64,000 nucleotides of DNA from NCBI RefSeq assembly GCF_030684315.1, contig NC_081391.1, positions 13,431,342 through 13,495,341 on the forward strand, given 5' to 3'. Below, in pieces: positions 161 to 60,880 of the stretch; the stretch's first letter is position 1; every line of letters starts with the position of its first letter. The stretch comes from Stegostoma tigrinum. Taxonomy: Eukaryota. A model generated the notes under the pieces. It was not told the DNA's origin and ran no database searches. It saw only the letters and a list, made by a program, of their open reading frames with translations. Made by a program: the position numbers and the translations under genes.

Positions 161-3100
161 ATGGCATCCCAGATCATGCAGAACTATCACCAGGATTGTG
201 AAGATGCTGTCAACAAGCAGATTAATGTGGAGCTCACTGCCTCCTATCTCTATCAGTCTTTGGTGAGTGGTGTCTCTGTTGGGTGAAACATACTTCTGTT
301 CTGTTGAAGTGAACTCTTCCCCTTGGATGTAATTAAGTTGTCTATCTTATAGACTGAGTTTTGTGGCTCCTACCTCTTTCTCACTGCAGGATGAGTGTGA
401 TGTTACTATAACAATAGTTTGGTGTCTAATGTACTCTAACTTGGGTCCCAGTTGGTTGTCAGTGAGATGTGGAGGGTGGAGTGTTCTTGTAGTTACTTGC
501 CTGTCCCATGATGGTGCTGTGACTGGTGGTAATTATCGCTTCCTGTGACTTTGTTTGAAACTTGAGGGAACTAATTTAAAAACGAATTGGGACTCACCAT
601 TGTGGGAATGGAAGCACCATCGGCTAGTCACTGCTCTTCTTTTCCTCCTTGTATCCTTGCTTGTATTTGAATTTTGTGGTGATCCCAACTTAACATCTCA
701 AATAAACTTGATTTCCGATTGCAATCAGCTTAGAATAGGCTTGTTCTAGCCCTGCAGAGCTGGGCTGAGAAGTGGCAAATGGAGTTTAATGCAGACAAGT
801 GTGAGGTGATGCACTTTGGTAGGAGTAACCAGCAGGCAAAGCACGAGGCTAATGGTAAGATTCTTAGTAATGTCGATGAGGAGAGAGATCTCGGTGTCCA
901 CGTAAACAGGTCCTTGAAAGTTGCCATCCAGGTTGACAGGGCGGTTAAGAAGGCAGTGTTTTCTCTTTGATTAATAGAGGCATTGAGTTCTGGAACCAAG
1001 AGGTTATGGTGAAGCTGTACCAAACTCTGGTGTGGCTGCACTTGTAGTATTGTATACAGTTCTGGTCACTGCATTATAAGGATGTGGAAGCTTTGGCAAG
1101 AGTGCAGAGGAGGTTTACTAGGATGTTGCCTGGTATCGAGGGAAGCTCTTATGAGGAAAGACTGAGGGACTTGAGGCTGTCTTCATTGGTGAGAAGGTTG
1201 AGAGTTGACTTAATTGAAACATATAATATTCTGAGGGTTGGAAAGGGAAATCCTCTTTCTGCGGACGGTGAGCATGAGGGGGCATAGCTGTAAATTGAGG
1301 GATGATAGATATAGGACAGATGTCTGAGGTAGTTTCTTTACTCAGTAGTAAGGGAATGGAATGCTTTGCCTGTGACGGTAGTAGATTTGCCAACTTTAGG
1401 TACATTTAAGTCGTCATTGGACAAGCATATGGACGTACAGGGAATAGTCTAGGTTAGATGGGCTTGAGATCAGTATGACAAGTTGACACAACATCTAGGG
1501 CCTGTACTGTGCTGTTATGTTCTAGTTTCAGATTAAACTGGGTGAGGTTGTGACTGGTATCTGATCAAGCAGATCTCCATTTGAGATCTACTTTGCTTTT
1601 TTTCATACTCATGAGGTGGGTGTGGGCTGTCTGTATATCAGTGTTGGAGCTTTTCCAAGGCATGGCACTGCCGTGGGGCTGAGAATGTGCGGAGGGTACT
1701 GACCCAGTGAATATGGAAAAAATAGCTTATTCCTGTTGTATTTGGCCTGACTCTAAACTAACTAGCCCCTCTTTCCCCAGGTGGTTGGGTGCCTGTGCCC
1801 TTCCAAGGGGTAGAATGTGTTTAGAAGGTGTTAGAAGTAACCTTAGTGAGTGTTGCCGGGTGCTCTCTGGGCTTGTGCTTGTCAGCAGGAAGTCCTCTCA
1901 TGATGAGGATCAAGTCCCTGTCAGCCCCACTTTGGGAGGTGGCAACAGCTTTCATTGAGCCAGCAGTTCAGTTTTAATCGCTGACCCATGTTCCTAACAC
2001 AACTTGGAAGCATGTCCCAAGAGTAAAATCTCCACTATTCTACATCTTCTAACTGCCCATTTAAATGGGCAATGATAAATTGTGCTTGTGTTTGCATTTG
2101 ACAATTAAAGCAACTTTTTTCAGCAGGATTCCCAAGAATGTGTGTCTTAGTAGCTGCTTCCAATAGCAGACCTGGTAAACCTGAATACATTGAATTGTGA
2201 ACATCCTGGTTTAGAAATCTACAGGACTTTGCCTGTTGGATTAAGTCAACAGTAGCATTTCCAGGTTACTGTTTTAATAAGTGATGTTGTCTAGAGAGTA
2301 GGTGATCTGCAGGTCACTGTCATATTTGTCATGTGATCAGTTTGTTTTGTCAATCAGTGTTTCATGTGTAATGGTACAAGTTGCTAGCAGTCTCAGTACA
2401 GCTGTTTTAGATGCAGCAGTAAACTGTATCTAGAACAATCCAAAGACTGTCCCGAGGCAGGCTTTCCTTGGCAGATTCTTGGTGCCCATGTCCTTCATTC
2501 ATCCCTTCCCCCTCACCCCAGCCACCCCACTACTGCAGCCCTTGTCAAACTAATAGATACAGTGCATCCAATTGCATTGATCCTGACTAAGCAGAAAATG
2601 TGCTCCTTCCTAGCTGTTAGTTGCAGTGTCTGGGATCTGTTTTCTGGCCTTTGCCAAAGGAGCAATAGCGTGCCCTGCAGCTGTTCTATTGGTGCACATC
2701 CTGCATTCCAGCTTCTGGCATTTCTTGAAACCCTATTCAATCAGTAATTTATCCCATTTCTGGTGGAGGTTAATCAGTAAAAACATCAATTCACACTTGT
2801 TCTCACCCAATGCTGTGCCAGACCCACTGAGCAATTTGCCAGGAGTTTCAAACCAAAATAAAACACATGGTGTTTACAGCTTACCTGGAGGAAGCTGGGA
2901 TTGTTTTGATTTTTCCAATTCAACAGGAACTGCTCAAAACTGGGTTCTGAATTGTTAATGCATCAGGTACTTAACAGCTTATTGTCAGTCTGATTTTTAG
3001 AATGCTCAAGTAGCCCTGGAGCTCTGAACTAAAATTGGCCCGTGACTTGTTAATGGGCTTTACCTTGATCTCCCTTCCAGATGTCCTACTTTGACCGGGA

Positions 3101-5340
3101 TGATGTTGCCCTCCCCCATGTCTCCCGCTTCTTCAAACATCAGTCCAGGAGAAGCGGGAACATGCAGAGAAGCTGCTGAACTTCCAGAATCAGCGTGGAG
3201 GCCGGGTCCTCCTCCAGGATGTGAAGGTTGGAGTTGGGTGGGGTGGGGGTTGGGATGGTAATGGCTGCTCTTGTGGTGTGGTTTCAAGTCAGTGACAAGG
3301 TTTTCATTTGAGTCAAAACTTTGTTCGGCCTGTTTGATCTCCTTTTTGAAGCCAGTGTAGAAAGAAGCCCTTTGGCCCACCATGTCTTTGCTGACCCCAC
3401 AAACACTAAAGCACATTAATCCCATTTACCTTCCCTTGGTCCACAGGCCACTGTCCTGGCACTATATACTTGTCCAGCTGGACCTTAAACTGATCTGGAG
3501 TAGCTGACTCCACCACCATCCAACCCTTTATGTGGTTCATCTCATATTTCTAACCTCCCCCTCGGAGGAGGGTGAAGAGAACGTTTCCTCCAATCCCCTC
3601 TAACCTGCTTACTCCACAAACCTGGTTTCTCTCTGGTCTTGCTGTCTGCTATGGGGAAGACATTCCATCAACTGGCCACTCTCTATTCTTCAATAGTTAC
3701 ATCAGGTCACTCCCTCAGCCGTTCCTGCTCCACAGAAAATCCCAGCCTATCTAACCTCCAATCAATGGATCTTGGGCAACAGCCTGGGCAACCTCACCAG
3801 CTTCCCCCTGCAGTGCCATCCTGTCCTTGTGACTGGTGAGGCCCAAGAGGGAATCATGTGGTGACTAGAAGAACAAACTGTGACAAGACTGGCCCCCTTC
3901 CTGTTCCACCACACCCAACTAATAGAGGTTGCTTGCCCTCTGTCACTGTTACACCCTGTTGACCTTGTCTGAACTTTGAGGGATCTATGGTTTTGGGCCT
4001 TTCTTAACTGTTAGCAGCACAACACACTTTGCAAACACCTCGCTGTCCCTTGGATGAATTAAATAGCCGTGATGTTTCTGATCATCCTGCTCAGGCATGT
4101 ATGAAGCCACCAGCACAAGTGGTACTTGAACCTTGGCCTTGTCAGCCAGAGACAGGGGCACTACCACTGTACCATGACAGCATTTAGGATTCACTCGTGA
4201 ATATCCTCGCAATTCCATCAGATGGACCCTGATGCAAATCTTGTCATTATCCCCCACAATGACCTGTTATTCAACTTCCTCCTTCAGATCAAGGACCGAC
4301 AGGCAAGGTGAAAGCAATTCTGAAGGAACTGTTCTTCAGCTGTGCTCCAGGGCTGCCTCAGGGGCTAGCAGTGTTCTCAGTGCTAGGGACGCAGGTTTTG
4401 ATCTGGCCTCTGGTGAGGGACTGGTGTTGACATGTCCTCCCCATGTCTGCGTTGGTGTCCTCATAGTATAAGAGGATTGGCCATCTGAAATGCAGGGTTA
4501 CAGGAATAGAGGGGGAGTGGGATGAGCTGGGATGCATTTCAGAGCAGTTCTGCACTGATCGATGTTGTAGAGATTCTGAAGCTTCACTTTCCTTCTTTCC
4601 ATCCTCAGAAGCCAGAGAGGGATGAGTGGGGTAACAGCCTGCAGGCGATGCAGGTTGCCCTGGATCTGGAGAAGAATGTGAACCAGAGTTTGCTGGATCT
4701 TCACCAACTTGCCACAGCCCAGACTGACCCTCATGTAAGCTTCACCACTTCATTCTCTTCACTGCTGGTCACTCAGGGTAACACCTTCAATGGTTGGTCT
4801 TTTGTGGATTAGAAGTTGCCTGCTGTCTCAGACAAGTACCATTTGGATCTCTTCAGATCCGTACCAATGCTTATAATCTGATCAGCTCAGCAATCAAGTA
4901 AAATGGGAATTTGGATTATAATCTAGTAGGAGTGATGAAGTGATATTGGCCACTGAATGCTCATCCAGGATTATTGCAGTGGAATGATCACTATCCATCA
5001 TAATCCAACACAGCATCACTTAACAAACTGCAAGAGCAGTTGAAATACATGGTCCTCACTGGCATAGTCTCCAGGTGTTAGGTTTTCAGGGTAGTCTAGA
5101 GCTCATATGGCTGAGTGTTTTGCAGTAGGAAATCTGAGGTTGTCTTGGATAGCATTAATGCTGCAAGTTGTCATATTCTTGCAGCTGTGTGACTTCCTGG
5201 AGACTCACTATTTGGATGAGGAGGTGGAGATCATCAAGCAACTTGGGGACTACATCACCAACCTGAAGCGCCTGGGAGCCCCTGAGAATGGGATGGGAGA
5301 GTACCTGTTTGACAGGCTCTCCCTGGAGGACAGCAGTTAG
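161..5340 (+). pseudogene. Ferritin copy A (M/L-like subunit), frameshifted in exon 2
   Basis: Exons 161-262, 3081-3226, 4609-4734, 5185-5340 with GT..AG introns at canonical vertebrate ferritin positions. Exon 2 is 146 nt instead of 147: CAGTCCAGG at 3141-3149 versus CAGTCCCAGG in other copies, giving an early TGA. This single C loss in a homopolymer could be a sequencing error. AATAAA at 5469-5474. Confidence 0.8.
752..1524 (+). mobile_element. 5'-truncated CR1 LINE in intron 1 of copy A
   Basis: ORF2 C-terminal peptides [17 protein letters not shown] and RVQRRFTRMLPG, followed by a CR1 3' UTR ending GTTCTA. Confidence 0.9.
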
Positions 5341-8509: not shown

Positions 8510-8679
8510 GGCTCCAACAGCAACGTTCAAAAGTTATGACGAATAATCCCTCAGATTAACAATCCGACAGAATTCTGCAAATCTGTGATGACTGTGTCTT
8601 CACGCACAACCTCAGATAGAAAAGCGAAGGTTTAGAGTATATTTTATTGTCATTTTGTGGCAAATACATTTACAGAATG

Positions 8680-8885
8680 TGCACTTGTAGAGGAGGTCAA
8701 AGATCATTCAGCAATTCCATCATCGACCAGTTGTCAACCGTGATTCGTTTCTGGATCCAGTTCCCATCCTGCACTGATTGGACGTGGCAACTGATCAATT
8801 GATTAACAAGAGTGATTGGCCATCACTGATGATGTCATTTCCTGCTTCATAAAAAGAGGGTCTGCCCCTGGGGTATAAATAGAGT
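8680..8885 (+). promoter_or_regulatory. Conserved promoter block, copy B
   Basis: DR1 variant AGGTCAaAGATCA 8694-8706, two ATTGG boxes, ATCAATTGAT palindrome, ATGATGTCAT-TTCCTG, TATAAA 8874-8879. Confidence 0.72.
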
Positions 8886-8966
8886 CCCACGGGAATGATG
8901 TTGATTGTTCTTCCTAATTTTGTTATTTTGGTGGTGAGGAAAATAAAAGAAATTTATTGTCACAAG

Positions 8967-11900
8967 ATGGCCTCCCAGATCAGTCAGAACTATCACCAGG
9001 ATTGTGAAGCTGCTGTCAACAAGCAGATTAATGTGGAGCTCACTGCCTCCTATCTCTATCAGTCTTTGGTGAGTGCTGTCTCTCGGGGTTAAACATATAA
9101 ATCTGTTCTGTTGAAGTAAATTCTTTGCCTGGCCTCTAGTGAAGCTGACAATCTAGTAGATTGAGGTTTTGTGGCTCCTACCTAAATATCAGTTCAGGAT
9201 AGAGGTGGTGTTACTATCACGATGGTGTAGGATACTGATGTATGTTAACTCAGGTCCCAGTTGGCCTTCAGTGGTATCTGGAGGGTAAAAGCCTCTTGCT
9301 TTTTTTTTCTTTCTGACACAAGTTTCCTGACTTCATTTGCCTGATCTCTGTGGTGGTCCTAAACAAACATGCTGATTTTTTTTAACACTGACAATAACAA
9401 TAACTTCCCTGTTGCAGTGGCCCTTGTTAGTCTGAACAAACCTGAGGCTAGTCTGTGACTGGTATCTATTTTATGTGGATCTCCTTCATTGAGGCTGACT
9501 TGGCTTTACTTGTATTTATTCAAGAGGTGGGTGTGGCCTATCCCGTCCCTACTGAGAGTGGATCTGCCGTGTGTGAGAAATGTTGGATCCCCTCTCTGCC
9601 CCCTCTCCACCCCACACTGGGGCTGCAGGAATGTGCTGAGGCTATGAGCCCAGTGACATTGAAGAAATGGAGGTTGTTCCCATATCATTTAGCTTGACCT
9701 AAAACAAAATGTCCCCTCTATCCTGGTGGTGATGTGACTGTGCCCTTCCAAGGAGTAGAATGTGCTTGGAAGGTATGTGTTGAAGTAACCTTGGTGAGTG
9801 CTGCAGGGGACCTGGTAGCTAATGGACCCTGAAAGGAGGTGGTGAATGCAGTCCCCATGAAGTGGGCTGCCCTGTCCTGGATGATGTCTGCTTCTTGCAT
9901 GTTGTAGCTCCCCTTCTACAGACACACGGGGAATATTCATCTCTCTCTGGGCTTGTGCCTATTGGAAGGAAGTTGTCTTATAATGAGGACTAAGTCCCTA
10001 TAAGCCTCACTTGGGAGGTGGGACCGCTTTAATGGTGAGCCAGTTGTTGGGGTTTAATCACTGTGTCTCAACTCTATTGGCACATGCTTCCCAAGGATAA
10101 AATCCCGACTATCTTCTGCCACAACTTGTAACTACCCACTGAAACCACAGATATTTGCTTGCCTGACTGTGGTTTTTGGATTTGAGGATTAAAGTAACTT
10201 TACAGGAGTCCTTCCCCAGAATGTAATTCTTAGCTGATGCTTCCAATAGCGAGCATTAGCTCTTAAACCCTTACATCGAATTGTGAACATGACAGTTTAG
10301 ATATGAGTCACATAGGCTGAAAACCTACAGGATTTTTTGCCTGTTTGGGTAAAGTCAGGGCAAGTGTTTTTCCAGGTTACTGTTTTCACTAGTGACGTTA
10401 TCTACAGGCCACTAATAGTTGACATTTGATCATTTGTTTTGCAATTTGTTTCAGTCATGTGACTTGGTGCAAGTTTCTGACAGCCGGAGTTTGCACTATT
10501 TAGGCAGAGCAATAACCCACTGCTGCAACGATCCAAAGGCTGTTACTGGGCAGGCTTTCCTCGGCATTATCTTAGTGCCAAACTCCATACTGGAGACAGC
10601 ACACCTTTGTAGAGTTCATGTGTACACTTACATCCCAATCTCATTGATCCTGGGTTTGCAGAAAACATGCTCCCTACTAGTCGTTGACTACAGCAGGGTT
10701 TCAACATCTTTTTTCCAGTTTTCCCCAAAGGCAAAACATAGTGCCTTGCGTCTTGTAGTTGAGAACTGGAATGGGGAGTGAGCCAGTGATGTCTGATGTA
10801 ATTTTAACTTGATCTTCCAGATGTCCTACTTTGACCAGGACGATGTTGCCCTCGCCCATTTCTCCCGGTTCTTCAAAGATCAGTCCCAGGAGAAGCGGGA
10901 ACATGCAGAAAAGCTGCTGAAATTCCAGAATCAGCGTGGAGGCCGAGTCCTCCTCCAGGATGTGAAGGTTGGGGTTGGGTGGTGGGGGAAGTGCAGGGGG
11001 GAATGGCTGCTCTTGCGGTGTCATCTCCAGTGACAAGATTTTCAGATCCTGAGCGAGTGTGAGAAGTTCTTTTGCTTGGCTTCCCTGTTTGCTCTCCTCC
11101 ATCTCCAGTGTTTCAGCATTTATGCAAGCCCTCTGGTCCACCAGGCCTATGCTGACGCAGCAAAGACCGAACTGTACTCACCCTGTACTTGGTCCAGGCC
11201 CTACTATACCCTAGTGTTTAGCACTCGCCCAGCTAGTCCTTTAAACAGTGCTGCAGTAGCCGTTTCCAGCACTTTGTTCTTCCGTTCCCCAACACACCCA
11301 CCAAATTTCCTCCAATCCCCTCTATCCTGCTTCCTCAAACCTGTGCCCTCTGGTCTGAGTGTCTGCCATGGGGAAGACATTTTCCCCATCTACTGTCCAG
11401 ACTTCCTTGTCTTCCATCAAACAACCACCTCAGCCTCACCTGCTCAAAGGAAAACCCCCAGCCCATCCAATCTCTCTCCTCAATGGATTTTCTGTCTTGG
11501 CGAAACAACCTGGGGACCCTCACCAGCACCCCCTGCAGTAGCATCCTGTCCTTCTGACCAGTGAGGCCAACGATAGAATGCAGCAGAGACCGGAAGAACA
11601 ATTTTCATAAAATGTGTTCAAAGGACTTGTCCCTGTGCTGTTCCTCACAACCCTGCCCCAAACTAACATGTTACTTGGCCTATGTCCCCTTTCACACACA
11701 GTTTGCCTTGTGTGAGCATTGAGGGATCGATGATCCTGTGTTTATTGTAAGCACATTACTGCCCCCCACAATGAATTCAAGTCATGATGGTTCTGACCAT
11801 GCTGCTCGGGCATGTATGAGGCCACAAGCACAAGTGAGACTTGAACCTCAGCCTTGTCAACCGGAGCTTGGGACACTACCGCTACTTCCCCCACAGCCCT

Positions 11901-13119
11901 TGGGATTCACTCCTGAATATCCTTTTTAAGACTCCAGCAGATGGACACTGGTGCAAATGACTAATCTGGTACATTTTTATTCCCTGTGGTACAAGGATAC
12001 GTTCCTGAGCTTCCGGCTTCAGGTCAAGGATAAATGGGGCAAGGTGAAAGGAGTCACCAAGTAGCTAATGTTTTCTTTATCTGGACTTCAGGGATGGCAC
12101 AGTGGCTCAGTGGTTGGCACTGTTGACTCAGTGCCAGGGGCACCAGTTTGGTTCTGGCCTGTGACGAGAATTTAAACGTTATCCCAAAGCATGGCTTCCC
12201 CACACAGTAGAAAAGAGGATTGGCAACTTGAAATGCAGGTTACACGAACAGGGTGGGAATGGGACCAGATGGGATGCTCTTCAGCAGTTATGGTCTCAAT
12301 GGGGTGAATGGCCAGCTCCCATGCTGCAGGGATTCTGTTTCTAAAGCTTACCTGTCCTTCTCTCCATCCCCAGAAGCCAGAGAGGGATGAGTGGGGTAAC
12401 AGTCTGCAGGCAATGCAGGTTGCCCTGGATCTGGAGAAGAATGTGAACCAGAGTTTGCTGGATCTCCACCAACTCGCCACAGCACAGACTGACCCTCATG
12501 TAAGCTTCACCTCCTCATTCACATCACTGCTAGACTCTCAGGGTAATGTTTCATTGGTTGGTCTGTGTGGATTGGAAATTCACTAATGTAACACTTTCCA
12601 TCCATTACTTTCCTGAACTATTGTAACATTGATCACTTGGGATCATACTGATTACAATGAGGTATAAGGGGAATTTGATCTCGAATCTAGTGGAAGTGCT
12701 GAAATGACGTTGGCCACTGAGTTCTTCATTAGTATCATTGCAGTGGAATGATCATTGTCCATCACAATCCAACTCAGCTCCATTTCACAAACAGCAAGAT
12801 GCAGCAGCTGACATGTTGTCCTCACTGGCACAAATTCTCCAGGTGTTAGCTCGCTTTTCAGGGCTGTCCAGAGCTAGTCATGGCTAAGTCTGTCTTGCAG
12901 TGGGAATTCTGAAATTGTCTTGGATAGTATAAATGTACCAAGTGTCATATTCCTCTGTTGCAGCTGTGTGACTTCCTGGAGACTCACTATTTGGATGAGG
13001 AGGTGGAGATCATCAAGCAACTCGGGGACTACATCACCAACCTGAAGCGCCTGGGAGCCCCTGAGAATGGGATGGGAGAGTACCTGTTTGACAGGCTCTC
13101 CCTGGAGGACAGCAGTTAG
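8967..13119 (+). CDS. Ferritin copy B, intact 176-aa M/L-like subunit
   Basis: Exons 8967-9068, 10821-10967, 12374-12499, 12964-13119 (102+147+126+156 nt). They splice to [176 protein letters not shown]. Confidence 0.93.
9735..10060 (-). mobile_element. Old non-LTR LINE fragment in intron 1
   Basis: The reverse-strand peptide [16 protein letters not shown] resembles a LINE ORF2 C-terminal D.IQ.KA.R.I motif. Related sequence is found in intron 1 of the other copies (about 1790, 19180, 27690, 35780, 43930, 51960, 61600). Confidence 0.45.
12090..12337 (+). mobile_element. tRNA-derived SINE (HE1/V-SINE-like) in intron 2, ending just before exon 3
   Basis: Head GGGATGGCACAGTGGCTCAGTGGTTGGCACTG (A-box) and CR1-like tail GAATGGCC..CCATGCTGCAGGGATTCT. 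Paralogues at about 4355-4578, 21828-22140, 30055-30280, 38137-38385, 46549-46803 and 54365-54612. Confidence 0.75.
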
Positions 13120-18336: not shown

Positions 18337-21300
18337 ATGGCCTCCCAGATTCGTCAGAACTATCACCAGGATTGTGAAGCTGCTGTCAACAAGCAGATTA
18401 ATGTGGAGCTCACTGCCTCCTATCTCTATCAGTCTTTGGTGAGTTTTGTCTTGATGGAGTTAAAATTAAATCTATTCTGCAAAAATGAGCTGATCCTCTT
18501 GTTTCAAATTAACTTCATAGTCTTGTAGATTTGAGGTGTTTAAGTTTGCACCTTTAAAAATCATTTTGGGATAAATGTAGTGCCCTTTGGTAACAATGGA
18601 TTTTGATATTGATGTGCAGTATCTAATTCACCAGCTGGGATTGAGTGATAGATGGAGGGCAAATTGTTCTGTCAATTATTTTACAATTTACTGCCAGGCC
18701 TTTGCCTGGTGGTAACTGTCATTTTCCTCCCCAGAATTGACCAAACTTTACTAAAATTAGATGTAATGGTGTTGAGAGTTGTATGCACCCCTTGGCTAGT
18801 CATCCTGTAACATTTTAATATACCTTGATCACACTTACTTTGTGCTCTGATCCTAAATACACATCATGCCAGTTTCCATTCTGTGATGGAGAATGATGGC
18901 AGTGACTGGCTTCTCTGAGCATATGCATGTGTAACTTGCATTGAGGAGGCCTCAGATGTGGACTAGTTGGCTTTCTGCATTCTCAGTTCATGAATGGACT
19001 GTTAGTGGTCAGGAAGTCACTTGTTGTCCATTCCTCCAATAGATCAATGCTCTCCTGTGAGTGCATGCACAGGGTGTCTGGAATAACCTGAGGTCTTCAC
19101 TTCACCAAAAAAGGTGAAGAATTGGAGTTTCAAATTCCCACGGTATGGGAAATGGTGCCTTTCTCCAGGGAGCACTGTGCCTATGGCCTCTCAAAATGGC
19201 AGGCTATAATGGTTTGGAAATGTTGAAGCAGCTTTTGAAGGCTGCTAGGTACCTGGTAGATAGTGGACACTAGGAGTGCATTCACTCACTCCCTTCAATG
19301 AGGTGGGCTGCTCTGTCCTGCATAGTGTCTGCTTTGTGCATGTTGCAGCTCCACTTCTTGGGGGGAAAAAGGGAGAATATTCATCCCTCGTGGGGCTTAT
19401 CACTGAGAAGCATTCTCTTCCCACACTTTCAGGATGAAATCCCTGTACCCTTCCCTTTAGCAGGTGGGAACAGCTATCACCAATAAGCCTGTTGGGTCTT
19501 AACTGTCAGTGGTGTCCCATATCAATTGGGCAGCATGTGCCCAAACAACCCACTATTGTACATCTGTAAGATGCAGCTACCCAAGTAAAGTCAGAGAAAG
19601 TTGCATAACTGTTTTTCGACAAAAGAAACTTCTCAGCCTGATCAGTAGGAACTAGATAACCTGCTCTAACAAGGTGTAGAGCTGGATGAACACAGCAGGC
19701 CAAGCAGCATCGGGGGAGCAGGGAAGCTGATGTTTTGGGCCTGGACCCTTGAGAAATGGGGAGGGGAAGAGGTCCCTGAAATAGCAAGGGGTGGGGAGGT
19801 GGATGGATGAGGGATCAAGAAACAGGTGGTGAGGAGACTCCGGTCTGAGGTGAGGATGGAGCCAATAAAGTCAAGTGAGTTGGGTAGGCCTGTCCAGGGA
19901 GGTGGGGATGGGGTTTGAGGTGGCGGTGGGGGTGGGGTGGGGTGGTGTGGGGAAGTAGGTGGGAGGAAGGATGGACAAGTTAGGGAGGTGGGGACTAGCT
20001 GAGCTGTGACTGGGGGAAGGGAGATCTTTCAGCTTAAGTCCTCACTGATACCATTGGGCTGCAGGGTTCCCAAGCAGAATACAAGGTGCTGTTCCTGCAA
20101 CCTTTGGGTGGCATTGGAGGCCCAGAATGAACATCAACTGTCCCCTCCTGCTCCTCTGGAGGGGAAGTAGTTTGTGACTGGGAGGTGCAGCTGCTGATCA
20201 CGAGCCCAGCATAGGCACTCCACAAAGTGGTGTCAAGCCTCTGCTCGGCTTTCCTGATGTAGAGGAGGCCACGTTAGGAACAGTGGGTACAGTATATCTC
20301 ACTGCAGATGTGTAGGTCCACTTCTTCTTGATGTGGAAGGTCTTGGGGCCTGGGATGAGGGGAGGTGTAGCACAATCTGTGTGGCAGGAAAAAAGCCCTG
20401 GCTAGTGGAATGGACAAGGGAATCAGTGGTCTCTCCAGAAGGCAGCTATGGTTGGGGAGGTTAAAAAAATGTCTTTGTCAGATCGTAGATGGTATAAGTG
20501 CCAGAGGATGCTGCACTGGATCCTGTCATTGAGGTGGTACTGAAGGATGAGAGGATTCTGTTTTGGTTGTGTGCGGGATAAGATGCAAGACCGGTTGTGT
20601 TTTTCTTCCACTAAAGGGAAGTTACGCTCCCTCGGAAAACGAGGACATCTGGGATGCCCAGGAGTAGAATGCCTCCCCTCAGGGCTGGAGGTGAAGGAAT
20701 TGGATTAGGGGAAGGCGTTTTCCTTCCACAGGAAGGTGGGTGAGGTGTAATCTTGGTAGCTGTAGGAGTCAGTAGGTTTGAAATAGATCAAAGATTGATC
20801 GACAAACTTAAGGTTGAGGTAGAAGGTTCTAATGAATTAGAGGAACCGTTCAAGCTCCTTGTGGGATGTAATGGAGGAAGATGTGGAGTTTATGGCCCAT
20901 CTCCCTGTAGAAGGATTGTTCCACATATCCTAACAGAAGCAGGCACAGCCTGGGCCCATGCAGGTACCTATGGCCACCCCCTTCCTCTGTAGGAGGTGGG
21001 AGGAATTGAAGGAGAAGTTAGGGGTGAGGATGAGTTGGCTAGTGGAAAAGCTTGTTGGTGAATGGGGACCAGTCAGACCTGCAGGATGAGAGAAGCAGAG
21101 GGCCTTCGGCTATCTCCACGGGGAATGGATGAGGTTGGAGGCTGTGGGTGGGAGGTCATCTGCAGTGAGGTTGTAGATGGACGAGGAGATGGTTTGGTGG
21201 TCAGGGGTGGAGTCATGATCAAGGGCGGGGTGGTAGGAGGTATCGGCTGCTCTTCCACACAAGTATATGTGGCACTCCAGCTCCTGGCGTTTCCTTAAAC

Positions 21301-22905
21301 CCTGTTCAGTCACGAACTTCATCCAATTCTGATGGTGCTTAGAGTGGAAATGCTCTTCTCTCTACAGACAAGAACAGGCCTGGGCACCTCAGGTTTTTGT
21401 CAAGGAATTTTAAAAAGTGTTTGCCTGGTTACCAGGAGGAGGCGAGGGTTGTTTTTGATGATCCTTGAACTGGAGCCACTGGCTCATTGGACAATGGTTC
21501 TCATCCACCTTGATGTATTCAAAAAATTCATGTTTATTGACTTCTCAATTTGATTGAAGGCTAAACCAGTCATGTCTGGCACCAATTGTATGATGCTTAA
21601 TGGATATAACTTGTTTTCTCCCAGATGTCCTACTTTGACCGGGATGATGTTGCCCTCCCCCATGTCTCCCAGTTCTTCCAAGATCAGTCCCAGGAGAAGC
21701 AGGAACATGCAGAGAAGCTGCTGAAATTCCAGAATCGGCATGGAGGCAGTCCTCCTCCAGGATGTGAAGGTTGGTGTTGGGTTTTTGGGGTGGGGGGAGT
21801 TGGGTGGTAGAGAGTGGCTGCTCCTCAGGGATGGCACAGTGACTCAGTGTTTCCCATGCATGCCTCAGTGCCAGGGATCCAAGTTTGGTTCTTGGTTCTA
21901 GGCTCCAGTGAATGACTGGAGTTGACTTGTTCTTGCCATGTCCACATTGGCTTCACGGTTCAATGACGTGTGGGTTAGAAGGATTGCCATTTAAAATGCA
22001 GGGTTACAGGAATAAGAAGGGACTTGTAGCGATGAATGTAGTGGCTGTACCTGCCGATTGGGGATGAATAAAATGATGTTGTGACCTTGGTTATTGTCAC
22101 CATGACTCAAATAGCCTGTTCCCATGCTGCAGAGATTGTGAAGCTTACCTGTCCTCTCTCCATCCCGAGAAGCCAGAGAGGGATGAGTGGGGTAACAGTC
22201 TGCAGGCAATGCAGGTCGCCCTGGATCTGGAGAAGAATGTGAACCAGAGTTGGCTGGATATGCACCGAGTTGCCACAGCCCAGACTGACCCTCATGTAAG
22301 CCTTCCCACCACCTCCTCATTCTGATCACTGCTAGGCCCTCAGGGCAACACCTCATTGGTCTTTTGTAGATTAAAATTCACTCGGATACTTGGATCACAA
22401 TATCATATCTGAACAGTATGTTCATTTAATCAACATCAAAGCAGCTCAGCTATGAGCTGAAATGGGAATTTGGATTCACTACCAGGAGTGATGTTGGCCA
22501 ATGAATTCACTTTCAGGGCCACTTGCATTAGAATGATCATCGTCTGTCACAGTTCAGCTCAGCTCCATTTCACAAACAAGAAGGTGCATCTGGAACGTTA
22601 CTGTCCTCACTGGCGCAACATCTCCTAGATGTCAGTGGCTTTTCCAGCTGTCGAAAGCTAGTTATGTTGGGGTCTGTTTCGCAGTGGGAATTCTGAAATT
22701 TTCCTAGATCATGCAAATGTACCAAGTTGCCATAATTCCTCTGTTGCAGCTGTGTGACTTCCTGGAGACTCTCTATTTGGATGAGGAGGTGGAGATCATC
22801 AAGCACCTTGGGGACTACATCACCAACCTGAAGCGCCTGGGAGCCCCTGAGAATGGGATGGGAGAGTACCTGTTTGACAGGCGCTCCCTGGAGGACAGCA
22901 GTTAG
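18337..22905 (+). pseudogene. Ferritin copy C, frameshifted
   Basis: Exons 18337-18438, 21625-21769 (145 nt; 2-nt loss, GGCAGTC versus GGCCGAGTC near 21747), 22170-22295 (weak GAG acceptor), 22750-22905. The TATA box is degraded to TAAAAAA at 18234. It has several private missense changes (SWLDMHRV, ETLY, DRRS). Confidence 0.88.
19666..21260 (-). mobile_element. Degenerate Penelope-like retroelement in intron 1 of copy C
   Basis: The reverse strand gives an RT-like GVAIGTCMGP (about 20950-20980) and a GIY-YIG-like IYCTHCS*RGLLYI (about 20255-20297). A terminal GCTGGATGAACACAGCAGGCCAAGCAGCATC segment is shared with the insert at 57446. Confidence 0.8.
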
Positions 22906-43408: not shown

Positions 43409-46400
43409 ATGGCCTCCCAGATTAGTCAGAACTATCACCAGGATTGTGAAGCTGCTGTCAACAAGCAGATTCATGTGGAGCTCACTGCCTCCTATCTCTA
43501 TCAGTCTTTGGTGAGTCTTGTCCCTAGGGGGTTAAAACTTGATCTATGTAGTTGCAGTAAATGGTTTCTCTTGAATTTAAATAACTGGACACTCTCTCTG
43601 GTCGACTGAGTTTTGTGGTCCTTTCCTAAATATTAATTCAGGATAAGGGCAATGTTACTATACCAATGGGGTTTGATAATGATGTACTCTGAAGCTGGGT
43701 CCCAGTTGGCATTTGGAGATATGTGGAGGTTTAAGTGTCCCTGGAGATATTTGCCAGTTTTGATTGGCAGTAGATGTCATTCCCTCTAAGATTACACAGC
43801 AGGCTGAGCAGGATGGCTGATGTTTTGGGGCTTGACCCTTCTGAAGGTGTGTCTAGGCCCAAAACATCAGCTTTCCTGCTCCTTTGCTTGGCCTGATGTG
43901 TTCATTCAGCTCTACATCATTGTATCTCAAGGGGTAGAGTGTGTTTGGAAGTTGTGTTGAAGTAACCTTGGTGAGTGCTGCAGGGGACCTGGTAGATAAT
44001 GGACCCTGAAAGGAGGTGGTGAATGCAGTCCCCATCAAGTGGGCTGCTCTGTCTTGGATGGTGTCTGCTTCTTGCATGTGGCAGCTCCACCTCCACAGAC
44101 ACATGGAGAAGCTTCATCACACTCAGCTTTTTTCTCTTAGAAAGAAGATGCCTCATGACAGATGGATGAAGCCTGTGTAAACTCCATTTGGGAGGTGGGT
44201 ACAGCTTTCATTGGTGAGCTAGTTGATGGGTGTTAATTCCTGACCAGGGTCCCAATTCCCTTGGGGAACATGTGTGCCAATTCTAAAATCCTTCCTATTC
44301 TCTCCCGCCACAGCTTGTCCCTACCCCAATTAAACAGCCAAGAAATTTTGTTTGACTGCTTCTGCTTCAAGAAAGTAACTTCCCACCAGGTTTCCTCAAC
44401 AACAAAACCCTTAGCTCCTGTTTCAAATATCAGAAGAATAGCCCTTCATAAACCTCAAGGCATTGGATTGTGAATATCTCGGTTCGGAAGTGAGTCACAT
44501 ATGGGTGGACAAACAACAGAACGCTGCCTGCTGGAATAAGCCAAACTCTGGTGTCCAGCTTTGTGTTAACTAGTGATGTTAGATCAGCCATTATCTGGAG
44601 GTACATGTCGCATTGGCCTGCTCCCCCTCTCCCTCTCCCCCTGCGTGCTCTTGTGGTCATGTGACCCTTGTTTTCTCCCCCCCGACCCCTTCTGGATGTG
44701 AGTGCACTAATTTTAGTGTGCTATAAACTATAGCTGCAACAATCCAGAGGCTGTTACTGGGTAGGTTTTCCTTTGCACTATCTTGTTGTCGCTTTCTCTC
44801 ATTCGCCTCTACTATATCTTGTAGTAATAAAATATACCGTACACTATCTCCCTGGTTTTGAGGCTGCAGAAACCTTGCTTCCTCCTGGTTATATTGTTAC
44901 AGCAGTGTCTAACATGCATTTCCATGCCAGCCCCAAAGGAGCAATAGTGTTGCAGCTCCGCTACTCAACTATAGCCTGCACTCCAGCTCCTGGTGCTTGT
45001 TTCAGCTGTTTTTTAGGCTCTAAATTTGTCCAATTCAAATGAAGGTTAGTGAGTGAAAACATGGCTGGATGCAAGAAGAGCTATAATGCTGTGCCAGACA
45101 GCCTGAGCAATTCACTGTTTTAAGCCAAACTTTTGCCAGTTTCCAATAGGAAATTGGGATTGTTGTTAGTTCCCAGTTGAAGGATCTGCTGGCCAGCTGG
45201 ATATCAGCGGATTCTCAACCATGTTCACATACCACGCAGTTAACAGCTAACTGAGCAGTTAGCTTGCTGCAGAAGGCTGAACTAGAATTTGGAGTCAGTG
45301 CTGTGTTCAATGGGCTTTAACATGTTCTCTCCCTTCCAGATGACCTACTTTGACTGGGATGATGTGGCCCTCCCCCACTTCTCCCAGTTCTTCAAAGATC
45401 AGTCCCAGGTGAAGCAGGAACCTGCAGAGAAGCTGCTGAAATTCCAGAATCAGCGTGGAGGCAGAGGCTGAGTCCTCCTCCAGGATGTGAAGGTTGGAGT
45501 TGTGTGGGAGGGTTGCAGCTGTGGGGAAGAGAATGGCAGCTCTTGTGGTGCTGCTTCCTGTTGGGATGTAAAAATCCTCTTTTGGCCTGGCTTCCCTGTT
45601 TGATTTCTTTTGAAGGCAGTTTCTAAACTAGCCCTATTGTCCACCGTGTCTATGCTGCCCACAAACCTCAAACTACATTAACACAATTTCCTTGCACTTA
45701 GTCCCCAGCCTACTATCTTCTGGCATGAAGAAGTTGTTGAGATTAGGCTTAAATGTTGCTGGAGTAACTTCCTCCACTGACCCCTCAGGTCATGCATCCC
45801 ATACCTCTCCCACCCTCCATTATCCTCCAATCTCCTCAAACCTGTGCCATCTGGTCTTCATGTCTGCCACAGGGACTGTCTATTGTCCATACTCCCTGAT
45901 CTTCCACACTTCCATGAGATAACCATCCCAGTCTATCCAACCTCCCTCTCATCATTGTTTTTTTTGTCAGTTTTCTTCCCCCATCTTGGGCCAACATCCT
46001 GATGACCCTCACCTGTACCCCCTCCAGTGTCACCCTGTCCCTCTGATTGTGGTTCTGGTCACCACACTACATTCCTTCTTTGGTCTGGCCAATGCTGCCA
46101 TGTTTATGGCAAGACTCATCCTTTTTACTGATCCCCAACTCCTGGAGACCAGCATCATGTCAGCCCCTTCCCCACTCTGTCTACCTTTGCTGAACCTTGA
46201 GGGATGGCCTTGGGCATTTGTTGCTTGTCCCTTTTACTGTAAGCCCATTGCTGCTCCCTTCAATGAATTAAACAGCAGTGATGTCTGATCATCCTGCTCA
46301 GACATGTATGAAGCCACTGGCACAGGTGAGACATAGATGCCTGGCCTGCAAGGTCCAGATTGGTACTCTACCTCAAGAGCCCTTGAGACTAAGGTGTGAA

Positions 46401-47550
46401 TGTCCTGATCTAAATGACAAATGGGCACTGGTGCAAACAGTTTAACTTTGTGTGAAATAAATCCCTGTCCCCACAATGACTTCATGCTTCAGATCAAGGA
46501 TAAATGGAGCAAAGTGAAGTCACCTACAAGTCATCAATGTGGGTTTTAGGGGTGGCACAGTTGCTCAGTGGTTAGCACTGCTGCCTCAGTGCCAGGGACA
46601 CAGGTTTAGCTCTGGCCTCTGGTGACTGGTGCTGACATGATCAGTTTCTTCCTACAGTCCAAATATGGGCAGGCTGGGTGAAGTAGCTGTGGGGGAAATG
46701 CAGGGCTATGGGATCAGGTAAATCTGAGATCTGCTTCAGAAGGTTGATTGCAGACTCAATGGGCTGAATGGCCTGCTCCCATGCTGCAGGAAGTCTGATT
46801 CTGAGGCTTAACTGTTCTTCTTTCCCCCCTCCAGAAGCCAGAGAGGGATGAGTAGGGTAACAGCCTGCAGGCAATGCAAGTTCTCCTGGATCTGGAGAAG
46901 AACGTGAACCAGAGTTTGTTGGATCTACCCCAACTCGCCACAGCCCAGACTGACCCTCATGTAAGCTTCACCTCTTCATTCTCACCACTGCCATGCCTCC
47001 TCAACTTCATTGGTTGATCTTTGTGGAGTGGAAAGTCACAGATGTAACTCTGTCCAGATGCTACATTGTCATCATAATTATGTTATTAAGGTACAATGTT
47101 ACAACTGCTCAACACTGAACTGAAATAGGAATTTGGATTACAGTCTAGTGGGAATGCTGATGTGATTTTTGGCTGCTGAATTGGGGATTGTTGCACGATA
47201 CAATACAACTTGGAGCTCTTTCAGAAGGTGAGATGGATCAGCTGAAATGTTGTCGTCACTGGCATCAATTCTCCACCTGGTAGCTAGATTTTCAGGGCTG
47301 TCTAGAGCTAGTTATGGCTAAGGGTTTTTCAGTGGGAATTATGAAATTGTCTTGGACAGTGTTAATGCACTCAGTTGTCATCTTCCTCTGTTGCAGCTGA
47401 GACTTCCTGGAGACTCACTATTTGGATGAGGAGGTGGAGATCATCAAGCAACTCGGGGACTACATCACCAACCTGAAGCGCCTGGGAGCCCCTGAGAATG
47501 GGATGGGAGAGTACCTGTTTGACAGGCTCTCCCTGGAGGACAGCAGTTAG
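43409..47550 (+). pseudogene. Ferritin copy F, multiply inactivated
   Basis: Exons 43409-43510, 45340-45492 (6-nt insertion, TGA at 45469-45471), 46835-46960 (TGG>TAG at 46853-46855), 47397-47550 (2-nt deletion at exon start, CTGAGAC versus CTGTGTGAC). Confidence 0.95.
43792..43930. mobile_element. Decayed Penelope terminal inverted remnant in intron 1 of copy F
   Basis: GCTGATGTTTTGGG...CCCAAAACATCAGC inverted pair, with similarity to the Penelope termini at 19680 and 57450. Confidence 0.6.
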
Positions 47551-51185: not shown

Positions 51186-54100
51186 ATGGCCTCCCAGATC
51201 AGTCAGAACTATCACCAGGATTGTGAAGCTGCTGTCAACAAGCAGATTAATGTGGAGCTCACTGCCTCCTATCTCTATCAGTCTTTGGTGAGTGCTGTCT
51301 CTCGGGGTTAAACATATAAATCTGTTCTGTTGAAGTAAATTCTTTGCCTGGCCTCTAGTGAAGCTGACAATCTAGTAGATTGAGGTTTTGTGGCTCCTAC
51401 CTAAATATCAGTTCAGGATAGAGGTGGTGTTACTATCACGATGGTGTAGGATACTGATGTATGTTAACTCAGGTCCCAGTTGGCCTTCAGTGGTATCTGG
51501 AGGGTAAAAGCCTCTTGCTTTTGTTTTCTTTCTGACACAAGTTTCCTGACTTCATTTGCCTGATCTCTGTGGTGGTCCTAAACAAACATGCTGATTTTTT
51601 TTAACACTGACAATAACAATAACTTCCCTGTTGCAGTGGCCCTTGTTAGTCTGAACAAACCTGAGGCTAGTCTGTGACTGGTATCTATTTTATGTGGATC
51701 TCCTTCATTGAGGCTGACTTGGCTTTACTTGTATTTATTCAAGCGGTGGGTGTGGCCTATCCCGTCCCTACTGAGAGTGGATCTGCTGTGTGTGAGAAAT
51801 GTTGGATCCCCTCTCTGCCCCTTCTCCACCCCACCCCATGCTGGGGCTGCTGGAATGTGCTGAGGCTATTAGCCCAGTGACAGTGAAGGAATGGAGGTTG
51901 TTCCCATATCATTTAGCTTGACCTAAAACAAAATGTCCCCTCTATCCCGGTGGTGATGTGCTTGTGCCCTTCCAAGGAGTAGACTGTGCTTGGAAGGTAT
52001 GTGTTGAAGTAACCTTGGTGAGTGCTGCAGGGGACCTGGTAGATAATGGACCCTGAAAGGAGGTGGTGAATGCAGTCCCCATGAAGTGGGCTGCTCTGTC
52101 CTGGATGGTGTCTGCTTCTTGCATGTTGCAGGTCCCCTTCTCCAGACACATGGGGAATATTCATCTCTCTCTGGGCTTGTGCCTGTTGTGAGGAAGTTGT
52201 CTTGTAATGAGGACTAAGTCCCTATAAGCCTCACTTGGGAGGTGGGACAGCTTTATTGGTGATCCAGTGGTTGGGGTTTAATCACTGTGTCCCAACTCTG
52301 TTGGCACATGCTTCCCAAGGATAAAATCCCGACTATCTTCTGCCATGACGTGTAACTACCCACTTAAACCAGAGATTTTTGCTTGCCTGACTGTGGTTTT
52401 TGGATTTGTGGATTAAAGTAACTTTTCAGGAGTCCTTCCCCAGAATGTAACTCTTAGCTGATGCTTCCAAGAGTGACGATTAGCTCTTAAACCCTTACAT
52501 CGAATTGTGAACATGACAGTTTAGATATGAGTCACATGGGCTGAAAGCCGACAGGATTTTTTGCCTGTTTGGGTTAAGTCAGGGCAAGTGCTTTTCCAGG
52601 TTACTGTTTTCACTAGTGACATTATCTACAGGCCACTGATATTTGACATTTGATCATTTGTTTCAGTCATGTGACTTGGTGCAAGTTTCTGACAGCCTGA
52701 GTTTGCACTATTTTTAGGCAGAGCAATAACCCACTGCTGCAACGATCCAAAGGCTGTTACTGGGCAGGCTTTCCTTGGCATTATCTTAGTGCTAAACATC
52801 ATACTGAAGATAGCGTACCCGTGTAGAGTTAATGTGTACACTTATGTCCAAATATCATTGATCCTGGGTTTGTAGAAAACATTCTCCCTACTATTCATTG
52901 ACTAGAACAAGGTTCAACATCTTTTTTGAAAGTTTACCTGAAAGGCAAAACACAGTGCCTTGTGGCTCCTCCATCCTGTGTACATCCTGTACGCCAGCTC
53001 CTGGCACTTCCTGAAACCCTGTTCAACCAGTAACTTCATCCAATTCTGTTGGAGATTAATGAATAGAAGCATGAATTCAGCTCTGTCTCTCCACAAAGGC
53101 TGTGCCAGGCACTCCTGAGCTAATCACCAGTAGATTCAAACCAAAATAAAACAGTATTTTTGGTTCCAGGAGGAAGCTGGACTGTTGTGATTTTGCCCAG
53201 TTGCTGGTGAATTGAACAACACTGGGTTCACAATCTGTTCAGTGTCTGATACATGAGCATGCCTTCTGTCAGTTTGGTTTGAGTGCTCAAGTAGTCTTGT
53301 AGTTGAGAACTGCAATTGGGAGTGAGCCAGTGATGTCGAATGTAACTTGAACTTGTTCTTCCAGATGTCCTACTTTGCCCAAGACGATGTTGCCCTCCCC
53401 CATTTCTCCCAGTTCTTCAAAGATCAGTTCCAGGAGAAGCGGGAACATGCAGAGAAGCTGCTGAAATTCCAGAATCAGCGTGGCGGCCGAGTCCTCCTCC
53501 AGGATGTGAAGGTTGGGGTTGGGTGGTGGGGGAGTGCAGGGTGGAATGGCTGCTCTTGCGGTGTCATCTCCAGTGACAAGATTTTCAGATCCTGAGCGAG
53601 TGTGGAAAGTTCTTTTGCTTGGCTTCCCTGTTTGCTCTCCTCCATCTCCAGTGTTTCAGCATTTATACAAGCCTGACTTCCATCAAACAACCACCTCAGC
53701 CTCACCTGCTCAAAGGACAAGGAAAACCCCAGCCCATCCAATCTCTCTCCTCACAATGGATTTTCTGTCTCGGGGAAACAACCTGGGGACCCTCACCAGC
53801 ACCCCCTGCAGTGCTATCCTGTCCTTCTGACTAGCGAGGCCAAAGATAGAATACAGCAGAGACCGGGAGAAGAATTTTCATAAAATGTGTTCAAAGGACT
53901 TGTCCCTGTGCTGTTCCTCACAACCCTGCCCCAAACTAACACATGTTACTTGGCCTATGTCCCCTTTCACACACAGTTTGCCTTGTGTGAGCATTGAGGG
54001 ATCGATGGTCCTGTGTTTATTGTAAGCACATTACTGCCCCCCACAATGAATTCAAGTAATGATGGTTCTGACCATGCCGCTCGGGCATGTATGAGGCCAC

Positions 54101-55394
54101 AAGCACAAGTGAGACTTGAACCTCAGCCTTGTCAACCGGAGCTTGGGACACTACCGCTACTTCCCCCACAGCCCTTGGGATTCACTCATGAATATCCTTT
54201 TTAAGACTCCAGCAGATGGACACTGGTGCAAATGACTAATCTGGTACATTTTTATTCCCTGTGGTACAAGGATATGTTCCTGAACTTCCGGCTTCAGGTC
54301 AAGGATAAATGGGGCAAGGTGAAAGGAGTCACCAAGTAGCTAATGTTTTCTTTATCTGGACTTCAGGGATGGCACAGTGGCTCAGTGGTTGGCACTGTTG
54401 ACTCAGTGCCAGGGGTACCAGTTTGGCTCTGGCCCGTGACGAGAGTTTAAACGTTTTCCCAAAGCATGGCATCCCCACACAGTAGAAAAGAAGATTGGCA
54501 ACTTGAAATGCAGGTTACAAGAACAGGGTGGGAATGGGACCAGATGGGATGCTCTTCAGCAGTTATGGTCTCAGTGGGGTGAATGGCCTGCTCCCATGCT
54601 GCAGGGATTCTGTTTCTGAAGCTTACCTGTCCTTCTCTCCATCCATAGAAGCCAGAGAGGGATGACTGGGGTAACAGCCTGCAGGCAATGCAGGTTGCCC
54701 TGAATCTGGAAAAGAATGTGAACCAGAGTTTGCTGGATCTACACCAACTCGCCACAGCCCAGACTGACCCTCATGTCAGCTTCACCTCCTCATTCACATC
54801 ACTGCTAGACCCTCAAGGTAACGTTTCATTGGTTGGTCTGTGTGGATTGGAAATTCACTGAAGTAACACTTTCCATCCATTACTTTCCTGAACTATTGTA
54901 ACATTGATCACTTGGGATCATACTGATTACAATGAGGTATAAGGGGAATTTGATCTCTAATCTAGTGGAAGTGCTGAAATGACGTTGGCCATTGAGTTCT
55001 TCATTCGTATCATTGCAGTGGAATGATCATTGTCCATCACAATCCAACTCAGCTCCATTTCACAAACAGCAAGATGGAGCAGCTGACATGTTGTCCTCAC
55101 TGGCACAAATTCTCCAGGTGTTAGCTCGCTTTTCAGGGCTGTCCAGAGCTAGTCATGGCTAAGTCTGTCTTGCAGTGGGAATTCTGAAATTGTCGTGGAT
55201 AGTATAAATGTACCAAGTGTCATATTCCTCTGTTGCAGCTGTGTGACTTCCTGGAGACTCACTATTTGGATGAGGAGGTGGAGATCATCAAGCAACTGGG
55301 GGACTACATCACCAACCTGAAGCGCCTGGGAGCCCCTGAGAATGGGATGGGAGAGTACCTGTTTGACAGGCTCTCCCTGGAGGACAGCAGTTAG
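51186..55394 (+). CDS. Ferritin copy G, intact ORF with weakened exon-3 donor
   Basis: Exons 51186-51287, 53365-53511, 54649-54774 (donor GTCAGC rather than GTAAGC), 55239-55394. The ORF is open but has YFAQDD and DQFQEK substitutions. Confidence 0.87.
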
Positions 55395-57445: not shown

Positions 57446-57637
57446 AGATAATAAAATGTGAGGCTGGATGAACACAGCAGGCCAAGCAGCATCTCAGGAG
57501 CACAAAATCAGAGATGAAGGATCTAGGCCCGAAACGTCAGCTTTTGTGCTCCTGAGATGCTGCTTGACCTGCTGTGTTCATCCAGCCTCACATGTTATTA
57601 TCTTGGAATTCTCCAGCATCTGCAGTTCCCATTATCA
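57446..57637. mobile_element. 192-bp Penelope terminal-repeat insertion with inverted arms and 14-bp target-site duplication
   Basis: CTGACATAGTCCCA at 57432-57445 and 57638-57651. Inverted arms at 57443-57507 and 57542-57606. Absent from the paralogous site at about 15187-15201. Confidence 0.85.
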
Positions 57638-60482: not shown

Positions 60483-60685
60483 GCACTTGTGCAGGAGGTC
60501 AAAGGTCAGTCAGCAATTCTATCATCGACCCGTTGTCAATTCTGATTGGTTTCTGGATCCAATTCCCATCCTGCACTGATTGGACGTGGCAGCTGATCAA
60601 TTGATGAATGAGAGTGATCGGCCAACACTGATGATGTCATTTCCTGCTCAAGAAAATAAAGGGCTGCTGCTCGAGTATAAAAATT
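60483..60685 (+). promoter_or_regulatory. Conserved promoter block, copy H
   Basis: Perfect DR1 60496-60508, distal ATTGG, TATAAAA from 60676. Confidence 0.7.
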
Positions 60686-60778
60686 GTCCCAAGAGAGTGA
60701 TGTTTATGGTGTAGTTGATCATCTTTCTAAGTTTGTTATTTGATTTTGGAGGAAAAGGAAAGCTATTTTCTTCATTAA

Positions 60779-60880
60779 ATGGCCTCCCAGATCAGTCAGA
60801 ACTATCACCAGGATTGTGAAGCTGCTGTCAACAAGCAGGTTAATGTGGAGCTCACTGCCTCCTATCTCTATCAGTCTTTG
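60779..60880 (+). CDS. Ferritin copy H, exon 1 only (gene continues beyond window)
   Basis: [34 protein letters not shown] followed by a GTGAGT donor. Intron 1 is collinear with intron 1 of copy C to the window end. Confidence 0.9.

Follow-up and report, generated by a model that had tools for sequence, protein, structure and literature searches.

The question raised by this locus is why a shark should carry a large tandem array of ferritin genes whose product lacks a ligand of the ferroxidase site. The locus lies in a 64,000-nucleotide stretch of the zebra shark (Stegostoma tigrinum) genome, NC_081391.1 positions 13,431,342 to 13,495,341 of the forward strand (hereafter the window). A first-pass annotation, made from the letters alone, had described at least eight tandem ferritins with a backbone of the M (middle) type and an active site of the L (light) type. 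Our analyses revealed that the window is a slice (G000:C50:13.43-13.50 Mb) of an array of 170 gene units, the Lys62 array, in which the Glu62 of H (heavy) and M chains is replaced by Lys (K62). With moderate confidence, we propose that this array encodes a non-catalytic, cage-stabilising partner chain, and that in oocytes this chain would build mixed cages with predicted catalytic Glu62 chains from a second array. The observed basis is the copy number, the fixed residues, purifying selection, the lack of an iron-responsive element (IRE), a promoter common to the Glu62 array and one old retrocopy.

Lys62 ferritins form a large tandem array

A genome profile search gave 1249 ferritin candidates, of which 150 were scored; most lie on C216 and in two regions of C50, the contig of the window. 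Examination of the complete region C50:12,948,000-14,489,999 for gene units delimited the Lys62 array to G000:C50:12,987,143-14,403,987, where the 170 units occupy 1.42 Mb of a single strand (+) at a median spacing of 8.5 kb; the initial figure of at least eight copies was an undercount. Four exons are present in 164/170 units. The frame is open in 113, and 112 of these are 531 nt long and specify 82 distinct proteins, while the other 57 units are broken. Self-alignment of the window revealed multi-gene repeat units, with offsets of ~26 kb and ~42 kb and 95-96% identity.

Residue numbers follow the human H chain and were anchored on the frog M and human H chains (PDB alignments) and on frog protein sequences. 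The H/M ferroxidase ligand set (E27, E62, H65, E107 and Q141) is broken at two positions, with K62 and E141 in all 112 full-length open copies. Also invariant among the 112 are E27, E64, E107, H118, C130, D131, E134, I144 and L173, and Y34 (107), Y137 (107), H65 (108) and E140 (111) are nearly so. None of the 169 array exon 2s has a Glu62 codon: the 138 ungapped ones carry AAG or AAA, 30 of the 31 gapped ones carry AAG, and one is deleted across the codon. The exact E141/I144 pattern gave 159 forward matches plus one on C2, and 0 in the control. The Lys62 array is under purifying selection: the ratio of replacement to synonymous differences per site (pN/pS) is 0.30 for 600 random pairs among 96 distinct coding sequences, and the distinct variants comprise 76 synonymous ones on 112 sites and 124 replacements on 416 sites (ratio 0.44, binomial p 5e-8, the variants not being independent events).

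In its predicted fold, the K62 protein is an ordinary ferritin subunit. P0004 contains Pfam PF00210 (123.8 bits), and its model (predicted local distance difference test score, pLDDT, 89) has a template modelling (TM) score of 0.94 to frog M ferritin. The K62 protein shares its length of 176 amino acids, its four exons and 69% identity with fish and frog M ferritin, and frog M ferritin is both its best PDB sequence match and its best fold match, which bears out the M-type backbone proposed earlier. M ferritin has E62/Q141 and an IRE (PMC4117605), in contrast to K62/E141 and no IRE in the Lys62 array. The view of Lys62, Glu141 and a hydrophobic residue 144 as L-chain features also stood, these being common to tetrapod L chains. 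On the other hand, Leu173, counted earlier as a further hallmark, is ruled out as an L-chain marker by its presence in most Glu62 shark array ferritins and one lamprey ferritin.

Glu62 belongs to the ligands of the di-iron centre; the double change E62K+H65G abolishes ferroxidase activity (PMC6929972), while in L chains a Lys62-Glu107 bridge stabilises the subunit (PMC13012636). We can soundly infer that the K62 protein is ferroxidase-impaired. Lys62 would remove the iron-bridging carboxylate and pair with Glu107, as in mammalian L chains. The acids of the L chain that nucleate mineral in the cavity are, we presume, those at positions 57 and 60. Such acids are given as Glu54/Glu61 in salmon numbering (PMC4117605). 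In the 112 full-length open copies, position 57 is Asp (64) or His (48), position 60 is Gln (102) or Arg (10), and 61 and 64 are Glu; the role in mineral nucleation that had been suggested is weakened by the lack of Glu at 57 and 60. With its ion channel intact and these residues in the cavity, the K62 protein would be better suited to act as a stabiliser or spacer than to nucleate mineral.

A second array with a common promoter

The Lys62 array lies 5.5 Mb from a second ferritin array on the same chromosome (C50). This Glu62 array (~C50:19.95-21.56 Mb and C216) has Gln141/Met144 and no IRE in the sampled loci, which are not a full census. Glu62 was found in 21/21 exon 2s sampled from it, and the Q141/M144 exon-4 pattern has at least 230 matches genome-wide, 99 of the first 100 listed being on C50. 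At the end of the Glu62 array stands a single M-type gene that bears an IRE and whose site is intact (E27, E62, H65, E107, Q141, A144, H173), and an FTH1-type gene, in which Rfam found an IRE, is located on C20. The existence of this separate, intact M-type gene rules out the Lys62 array as the shark's ordinary M/L gene. Nor does the earlier description of a subunit half-way from M to L hold as a lineage step, with the M-type gene intact and Glu141/Ile144 having arisen only in carpet sharks.

The first-pass annotation had missed the lack of an IRE in the Lys62 array. Rfam found none in the window, and an IRE-like element occurs in 0/167 upstream regions of the array under a pattern looser than that of Rfam, the start sites being unmapped. 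Across 14 scanned loci, the two Rfam matches were at FTH1 and the single M-type gene only, which served as positive controls. In both arrays, motifs that we take to be inverted CCAAT boxes and a TATA box precede a short leader. Among the 167 Lys62 upstream regions, TATA occurs in 122 and GATTGG in 151, and the region preceding copy B of the window (8807..8966, +) is typical: it contains inverted CCAAT (GATTGG) boxes, TGATGTCA and TATAAATA ~90 nt before the ATG, and no IRE. The upstream DNA of the K62 genes aligns with three Glu62-array promoters (z 3.9-6.4, 0/300 shuffles each). With the promoters of the two IRE-bearing genes (FTH1 and the M gene) and of the third single gene, g21580, z stayed under 1 and no alignment was obtained. 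The element TTCCTGCTTCA upstream of the TATA box was considered as an IRE relic and found no support, the upstream region scoring z -0.1 against the IRE-gene promoter.

An intronless K62/E141 retrocopy is 85% identical to copy E of the window versus 70% to the M gene. Retrocopies are inherited only when made from germline or early-embryo mRNA, and this old copy suggests germline transcription in an ancestor. Four decayed intronless ferritins were seen in all, L001 (C11:45.82 Mb), L002 (C5:51.55 Mb), L003 (C2:16.74 Mb) and L004 (C2:140.65 Mb); by appearance, the Glu62 array was the source of three and the K62 array of one, and the IRE genes of none. Among sequencing runs, X1, from a relative, yielded a single exon-4 contig to which 15 nt of exon 3 are attached, and X2 yielded exon-4 and 3' pieces, the RNA status of both runs being a guess. 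No contig in X1, X2 or X5 covered K62-type exons 1-3, and the long spliced contigs belong to the FTH1 and IRE-bearing M genes.

Phylogeny and distribution of the Lys62 proteins

The tree comprised 63 of 250 proteins (75 were picked and 12 dropped as unnamed, mislabelled or redundant) and four genes from the zebra shark genome. The K62 proteins, that of Heptranchias included, form one clade (support 100/100). In the best tree this clade is sister to the Glu62 array plus a chimaera protein, with support of 79/81, or 90/82 after the removal of six site columns. Tetrapod FTL forms a clade of its own (100/99) beside the tetrapod Glu62 'heavy chain A/B-like' genes (96/75), inside the bony-fish M group; this placement agrees with the M/L orthologous group of PMC4117605.

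Among the matches listed, ten shark genera have K62 proteins belonging to this subfamily, and several genera have multi-copy sets. E141/I144 was found only in the carpet sharks Stegostoma, Rhincodon, Chiloscyllium and Hemiscyllium, while Heterodontus, Scyliorhinus, Mustelus, Carcharodon, Cetorhinus and Heptranchias have Q141 with A, T or V at 144. Rays, Pristiophorus and Callorhinchus gave none among the matches listed, which is not proof of absence. The L-like site most likely arose in two steps, Glu62>Lys early in sharks and then Gln141>Glu with Ile144 in carpet sharks. As E141 is absent in six genera outside the carpet sharks, at least the E141 match to FTL is convergent.

Members of the Glu62 array also show site-breaking changes: K27/R65 in the ray proteins P0046 and P0080, and N62 or K62 in Heptranchias P0106, P0082 and P0060. 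This suggests that the ferroxidase site was lost repeatedly within the shark ferritin expansion. NCBI assigns three shark-type ferritins, P0141, P0310 and P0313, to Aeromonas veronii and Salmonella enterica; these records are probably mislabelled or contaminated.

The first-pass annotation had offered 'convergent or ancestral' for the L-like site. Most likely, though this is not proven, the site arose independently of tetrapod FTL; convergence is favoured because of the best tree, the protein identities, the shared promoter and the late origin of E141. Alternatively, K62 and tetrapod FTL may be orthologues: an L-type chain would then have been present already in the jawed-vertebrate ancestor and lost in ray-finned fish, with the same function as in our preferred reading. 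Approximately unbiased (AU) tests do not reject a K62+FTL clade, with p-AU 0.50 for all columns (log likelihood 0.24 lower) and 0.15 without the six site columns (6.6 lower), and the amphibian 'oocyte' L chains have a near-identical site. Synteny, named earlier together with phylogeny as a check, is divided. The neighbours of human FTL are RUVBL2 and GYS1; RUVBL2 lies at C50:18.55 Mb, between the arrays (4.1 Mb from the Lys62 array, 3.1 Mb from the IRE-bearing M gene), but the glycogen synthase genes are on C20 and C33, away from C50, and synteny therefore does not decide FTL orthology.

We regard FTL orthology as improbable, jointly with the loss of the IRE or replacement of the promoter in sharks that goes with it. 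The best tree sets FTL with tetrapod Glu62 genes in the bony-fish M group, and the K62 proteins are 62-63% identical to L chains versus 71-74% to the shark Glu62 array proteins. The orthology reading is further opposed by the six genera without E141, by the promoter common to the two arrays, and by the recurrence of K62, a single base change, in the unrelated Heptranchias array copy P0060 and in the lizard protein P0161. A variant, in which K62 is the surviving FTL orthologue, a non-catalytic oocyte partner chain that predates the split of sharks and bony vertebrates, and in which the egg ferritin of sharks would be free of IRE control and built of two subunits in a ratio set by ~170 versus 230+ gene copies, is likewise improbable.

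Gene copies in the window

Exon searches located eight ferritin copies between 161 and 60880, all on the + strand: seven are whole, with four exons (A-G), while the eighth (H) is represented by its exon 1. Copies B, D, E and G are open, with 176-codon frames after GT-AG splicing; A, C and F are pseudogenes. Lys occupies the Glu62 position in 7/7 exon 2s and YLDEEVEII (Glu141, Ile144) is present in 7/7 exon 4s, confirming the amplified tandem ferritins as originally described. Glu27/Tyr34 were found in 8/8 exon 1s and Glu107 in 7/7 exon 3s, and the C-terminal motif is FDRL in six exon 4s and FDRR in one. The exon 2 motif SQEKREH proved less general than stated: its Lys62 is present in all seven, but the exact motif occurs only in A (frame restored across a deletion), B and E, the variants being SQEKQEH in C and D, SQVKQEP in F and FQEKREH in G. 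Exon 4 of the window copies is 100% identical to Stegostoma tigrinum proteins, followed by those of other carpet sharks.

Copy B (8967..13119, +; exons 8967-9068, 10821-10967, 12374-12499 and 12964-13119) encodes E27, Y34, K62, H65, E107, E141, I144 and L173. The other open copies are D (26061..31056, +; exons 26061-26162, 28793-28939, 30311-30436 and 30901-31056), E (35013..39166, +; exons 35013-35114, 36867-37013, 38421-38546 and 39011-39166) and G (51186..55394, +; exons 51186-51287, 53365-53511, 54649-54774 and 55239-55394). Copy H, of which only exon 1 lies in the window (60779..60880, +), is open once the exons beyond the window are added.

Among the broken copies, A (161..5340, +; exons 161-262, 3081-3226, 4609-4734 and 5185-5340) has a 1-nt deletion in exon 2 that leaves the Lys62 codon in place, and C (18337..22905, +; exons 18337-18438, 21625-21769, 22170-22295 and 22750-22905) has a 2-nt deletion in exon 2. 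Copy F (43409..47550, +) carries, besides a 6-nt insertion in exon 2 (45340-45492), two in-frame stops, one in that exon and one in exon 3 (46835-46960), and the start of its exon 4 is damaged. The lesion of copy A recurs in 3 array copies, that of C in 8-9 and that of F in 10, which rules out read errors as the origin of the broken copies; the pseudogenes were therefore co-amplified.

Downstream of the open copies B and G (13120-13260 and 55395-55535) the sequence AATGAA was observed, whereas A, C, D, E and F have AATAAA, and the 3' ends of B and G may be processed differently. Introns and spacers contain decayed reverse-transcriptase fragments resembling long interspersed nuclear elements, presumably of the CR1 type (752-1502, 7050-8464, 26660-27432, 33733-34538 and 49909-50690), which were amplified with the array.

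Other ferritin genes of the zebra shark

Two further single genes were observed on C50. The first (G000:C50:21,591,500-21,601,906, +; L038:8500-8764 and L037:7170-8907) is a ferritin gene with introns. Its exon 1 adds ~60 in-frame residues to the N terminus, Arg/Leu/Gly-rich and acid-free, and lies downstream of a GC-rich region without an IRE. This extension looks like a mitochondrial presequence. Because mammalian mitochondrial ferritin is intronless and the shark gene bears introns, the latter may be an independent or older mitochondrial ferritin. The second (G000:C50:21,570,730-21,580,354, -; L039 and L041) is a divergent IRE-less ferritin with a TATA box, the motif KQSDKEREQAE (K61, E62, Q65), a changed 3-fold channel (LSNFLE) and a long branch in the tree.

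Discussion

Ferritin amplification in sharks is already in print, for the Greenland and great white sharks. The Greenland shark has 155 'FTL' and 179 'FTH1' copies, in three clusters syntenic with the white shark, and its largest ferritin cluster is ovary-specific in expression (10.1101/2024.09.09.611499). The zebra shark shows the same ancient expansion, with hundreds of mostly full-length copies in a few large clusters; the Lys62 array, with 113 of its 170 units open, by itself amounts to over 100 tandem copies, most of them full length. The labels FTL and FTH1 in the Greenland shark account are given by similarity, and its section on the expansion (section 6) is silent on Lys62, the two site types and IRE loss. 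In the open-access literature we found no account of a shark ferritin subfamily with Lys62 or without IREs. While the amplification was known, the split into fixed Lys62 and Glu62 IRE-less arrays and the stepwise L-type site appear to be undescribed.

The closest parallel to the site is the oocyte isoform of the Xenopus laevis L chain (FRIL_XENLA, Q7SXA5; P0319), which has E27, Y34, K62, H65, E107, E141 and L173 with a hydrophobic residue at 144 (L144). It differs in K61, D64 and E57/E60 and is 62% identical, and the amphibian L chain, represented in the tree by X. tropicalis P0212, groups with tetrapod FTL and not with the sharks. Mammalian and reptile FTL share K62, E107, E141 and L173 at 63% identity, but E27 and H65 are replaced in most amniote L chains and kept in shark K62. 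We know of no large array of mammalian or reptile FTL. Human FTL carries an IRE (PMC8196845), in contrast to the Lys62 array.

In the reading that we prefer, mixed 24-mers would form from K62 subunits and predicted catalytic Glu62 subunits; this is the simplest model because a nearby array of such predicted catalytic subunits looks co-regulated. An mRNA without an IRE would be translated whatever the iron level of the cell, and hundreds of gene copies would supply the dosage for stocking a large egg. Zebrafish follicles contain abundant ferritin transcripts (PMC1488847).

Several points weigh against this proposal. The published inactivating mutant is the double E62K/H65G, but His65 is kept in 108/112 copies, and the cavity acids of L chains, E57 and E60, are missing. 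Broken, co-amplified units make up a third of the array, and much of the copy number may be passive. The ovary result comes from another species, in which the cluster is not tied to the K62 type. Transcript evidence is weak, amounting to the single X1 contig that joins 15 nt of exon 3 to exon 4, and the activity, assembly and tissue assigned to the K62 proteins are predictions. The branch uniting K62 with the Glu62 array is not starred in the tree, and the AU tests do not reject the K62+FTL clade.

Another reading, about as unlikely as FTL orthology, is that K62 subunits assemble into cages of their own and act as a stable bulk or carrier protein, in the egg or in another tissue, that stores little iron; the recruitment of crystallins and mammalian FTHL17 would be comparable. 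It would account for the loss of both a ferroxidase ligand and the acids at 57 and 60, for the extreme dosage and for the separate location, 5.5 Mb from the Glu62 array. FTHL17 is intronless, H-derived and unstable, and is an analogue only. As a precedent it is a germline-associated mammalian family without ferroxidase activity or iron storage (PMC5312872). However, the 3-fold channel residues H118, C130, D131 and E134 as well as E27, E64 and E107 are fixed in 112/112 copies, as expected if iron still passes, and the similar promoters of the two arrays suggest that they are expressed together.

It is less probable still that the site is remodelled and not dead, with Glu27, His65, Glu107, Glu140 and the new Glu141 still binding and oxidising metal, slowly or by another route. 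The fixation of E27, E107 and E141 and the near-fixation of Y34, H65 and E140 would suit such a site. However, six genera have K62 without E141, so that E141 is not needed as a compensation; tetrapod L chains are marked by the same residues; and E62 is counted among the di-iron ligands (PMC6929972). It is very improbable that unequal crossing-over accounts for most of the array, with a few copies that matter and a neutral copy number: the 57 broken units and the lesions spread in multi-gene repeat units fit it, but 113 copies are open, selection within the array is purifying, several genera have multi-copy K62 sets, and distant sharks have an expansion in common.

To conclude, the division into H and L chains is usually held to be a tetrapod feature, fish being thought to use one dual-purpose M chain. 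Sharks appear to keep an old, separate Lys62 subfamily, amplified with a Glu62 partner family to ~400 IRE-less genes, and the database names 'heavy', 'middle' and 'higher subunit-like' hide the distinction between the two. If convergent, the shark K62 proteins would repeat L-chain evolution in nature, through datable steps (six genera with K62 only, four with K62, E141 and I144), and would show separately what E62K does while His65 and Glu27 are retained. The K62/Glu62 split offers a testable mechanism for the unexplained ovary-specific ferritin expansion of sharks.

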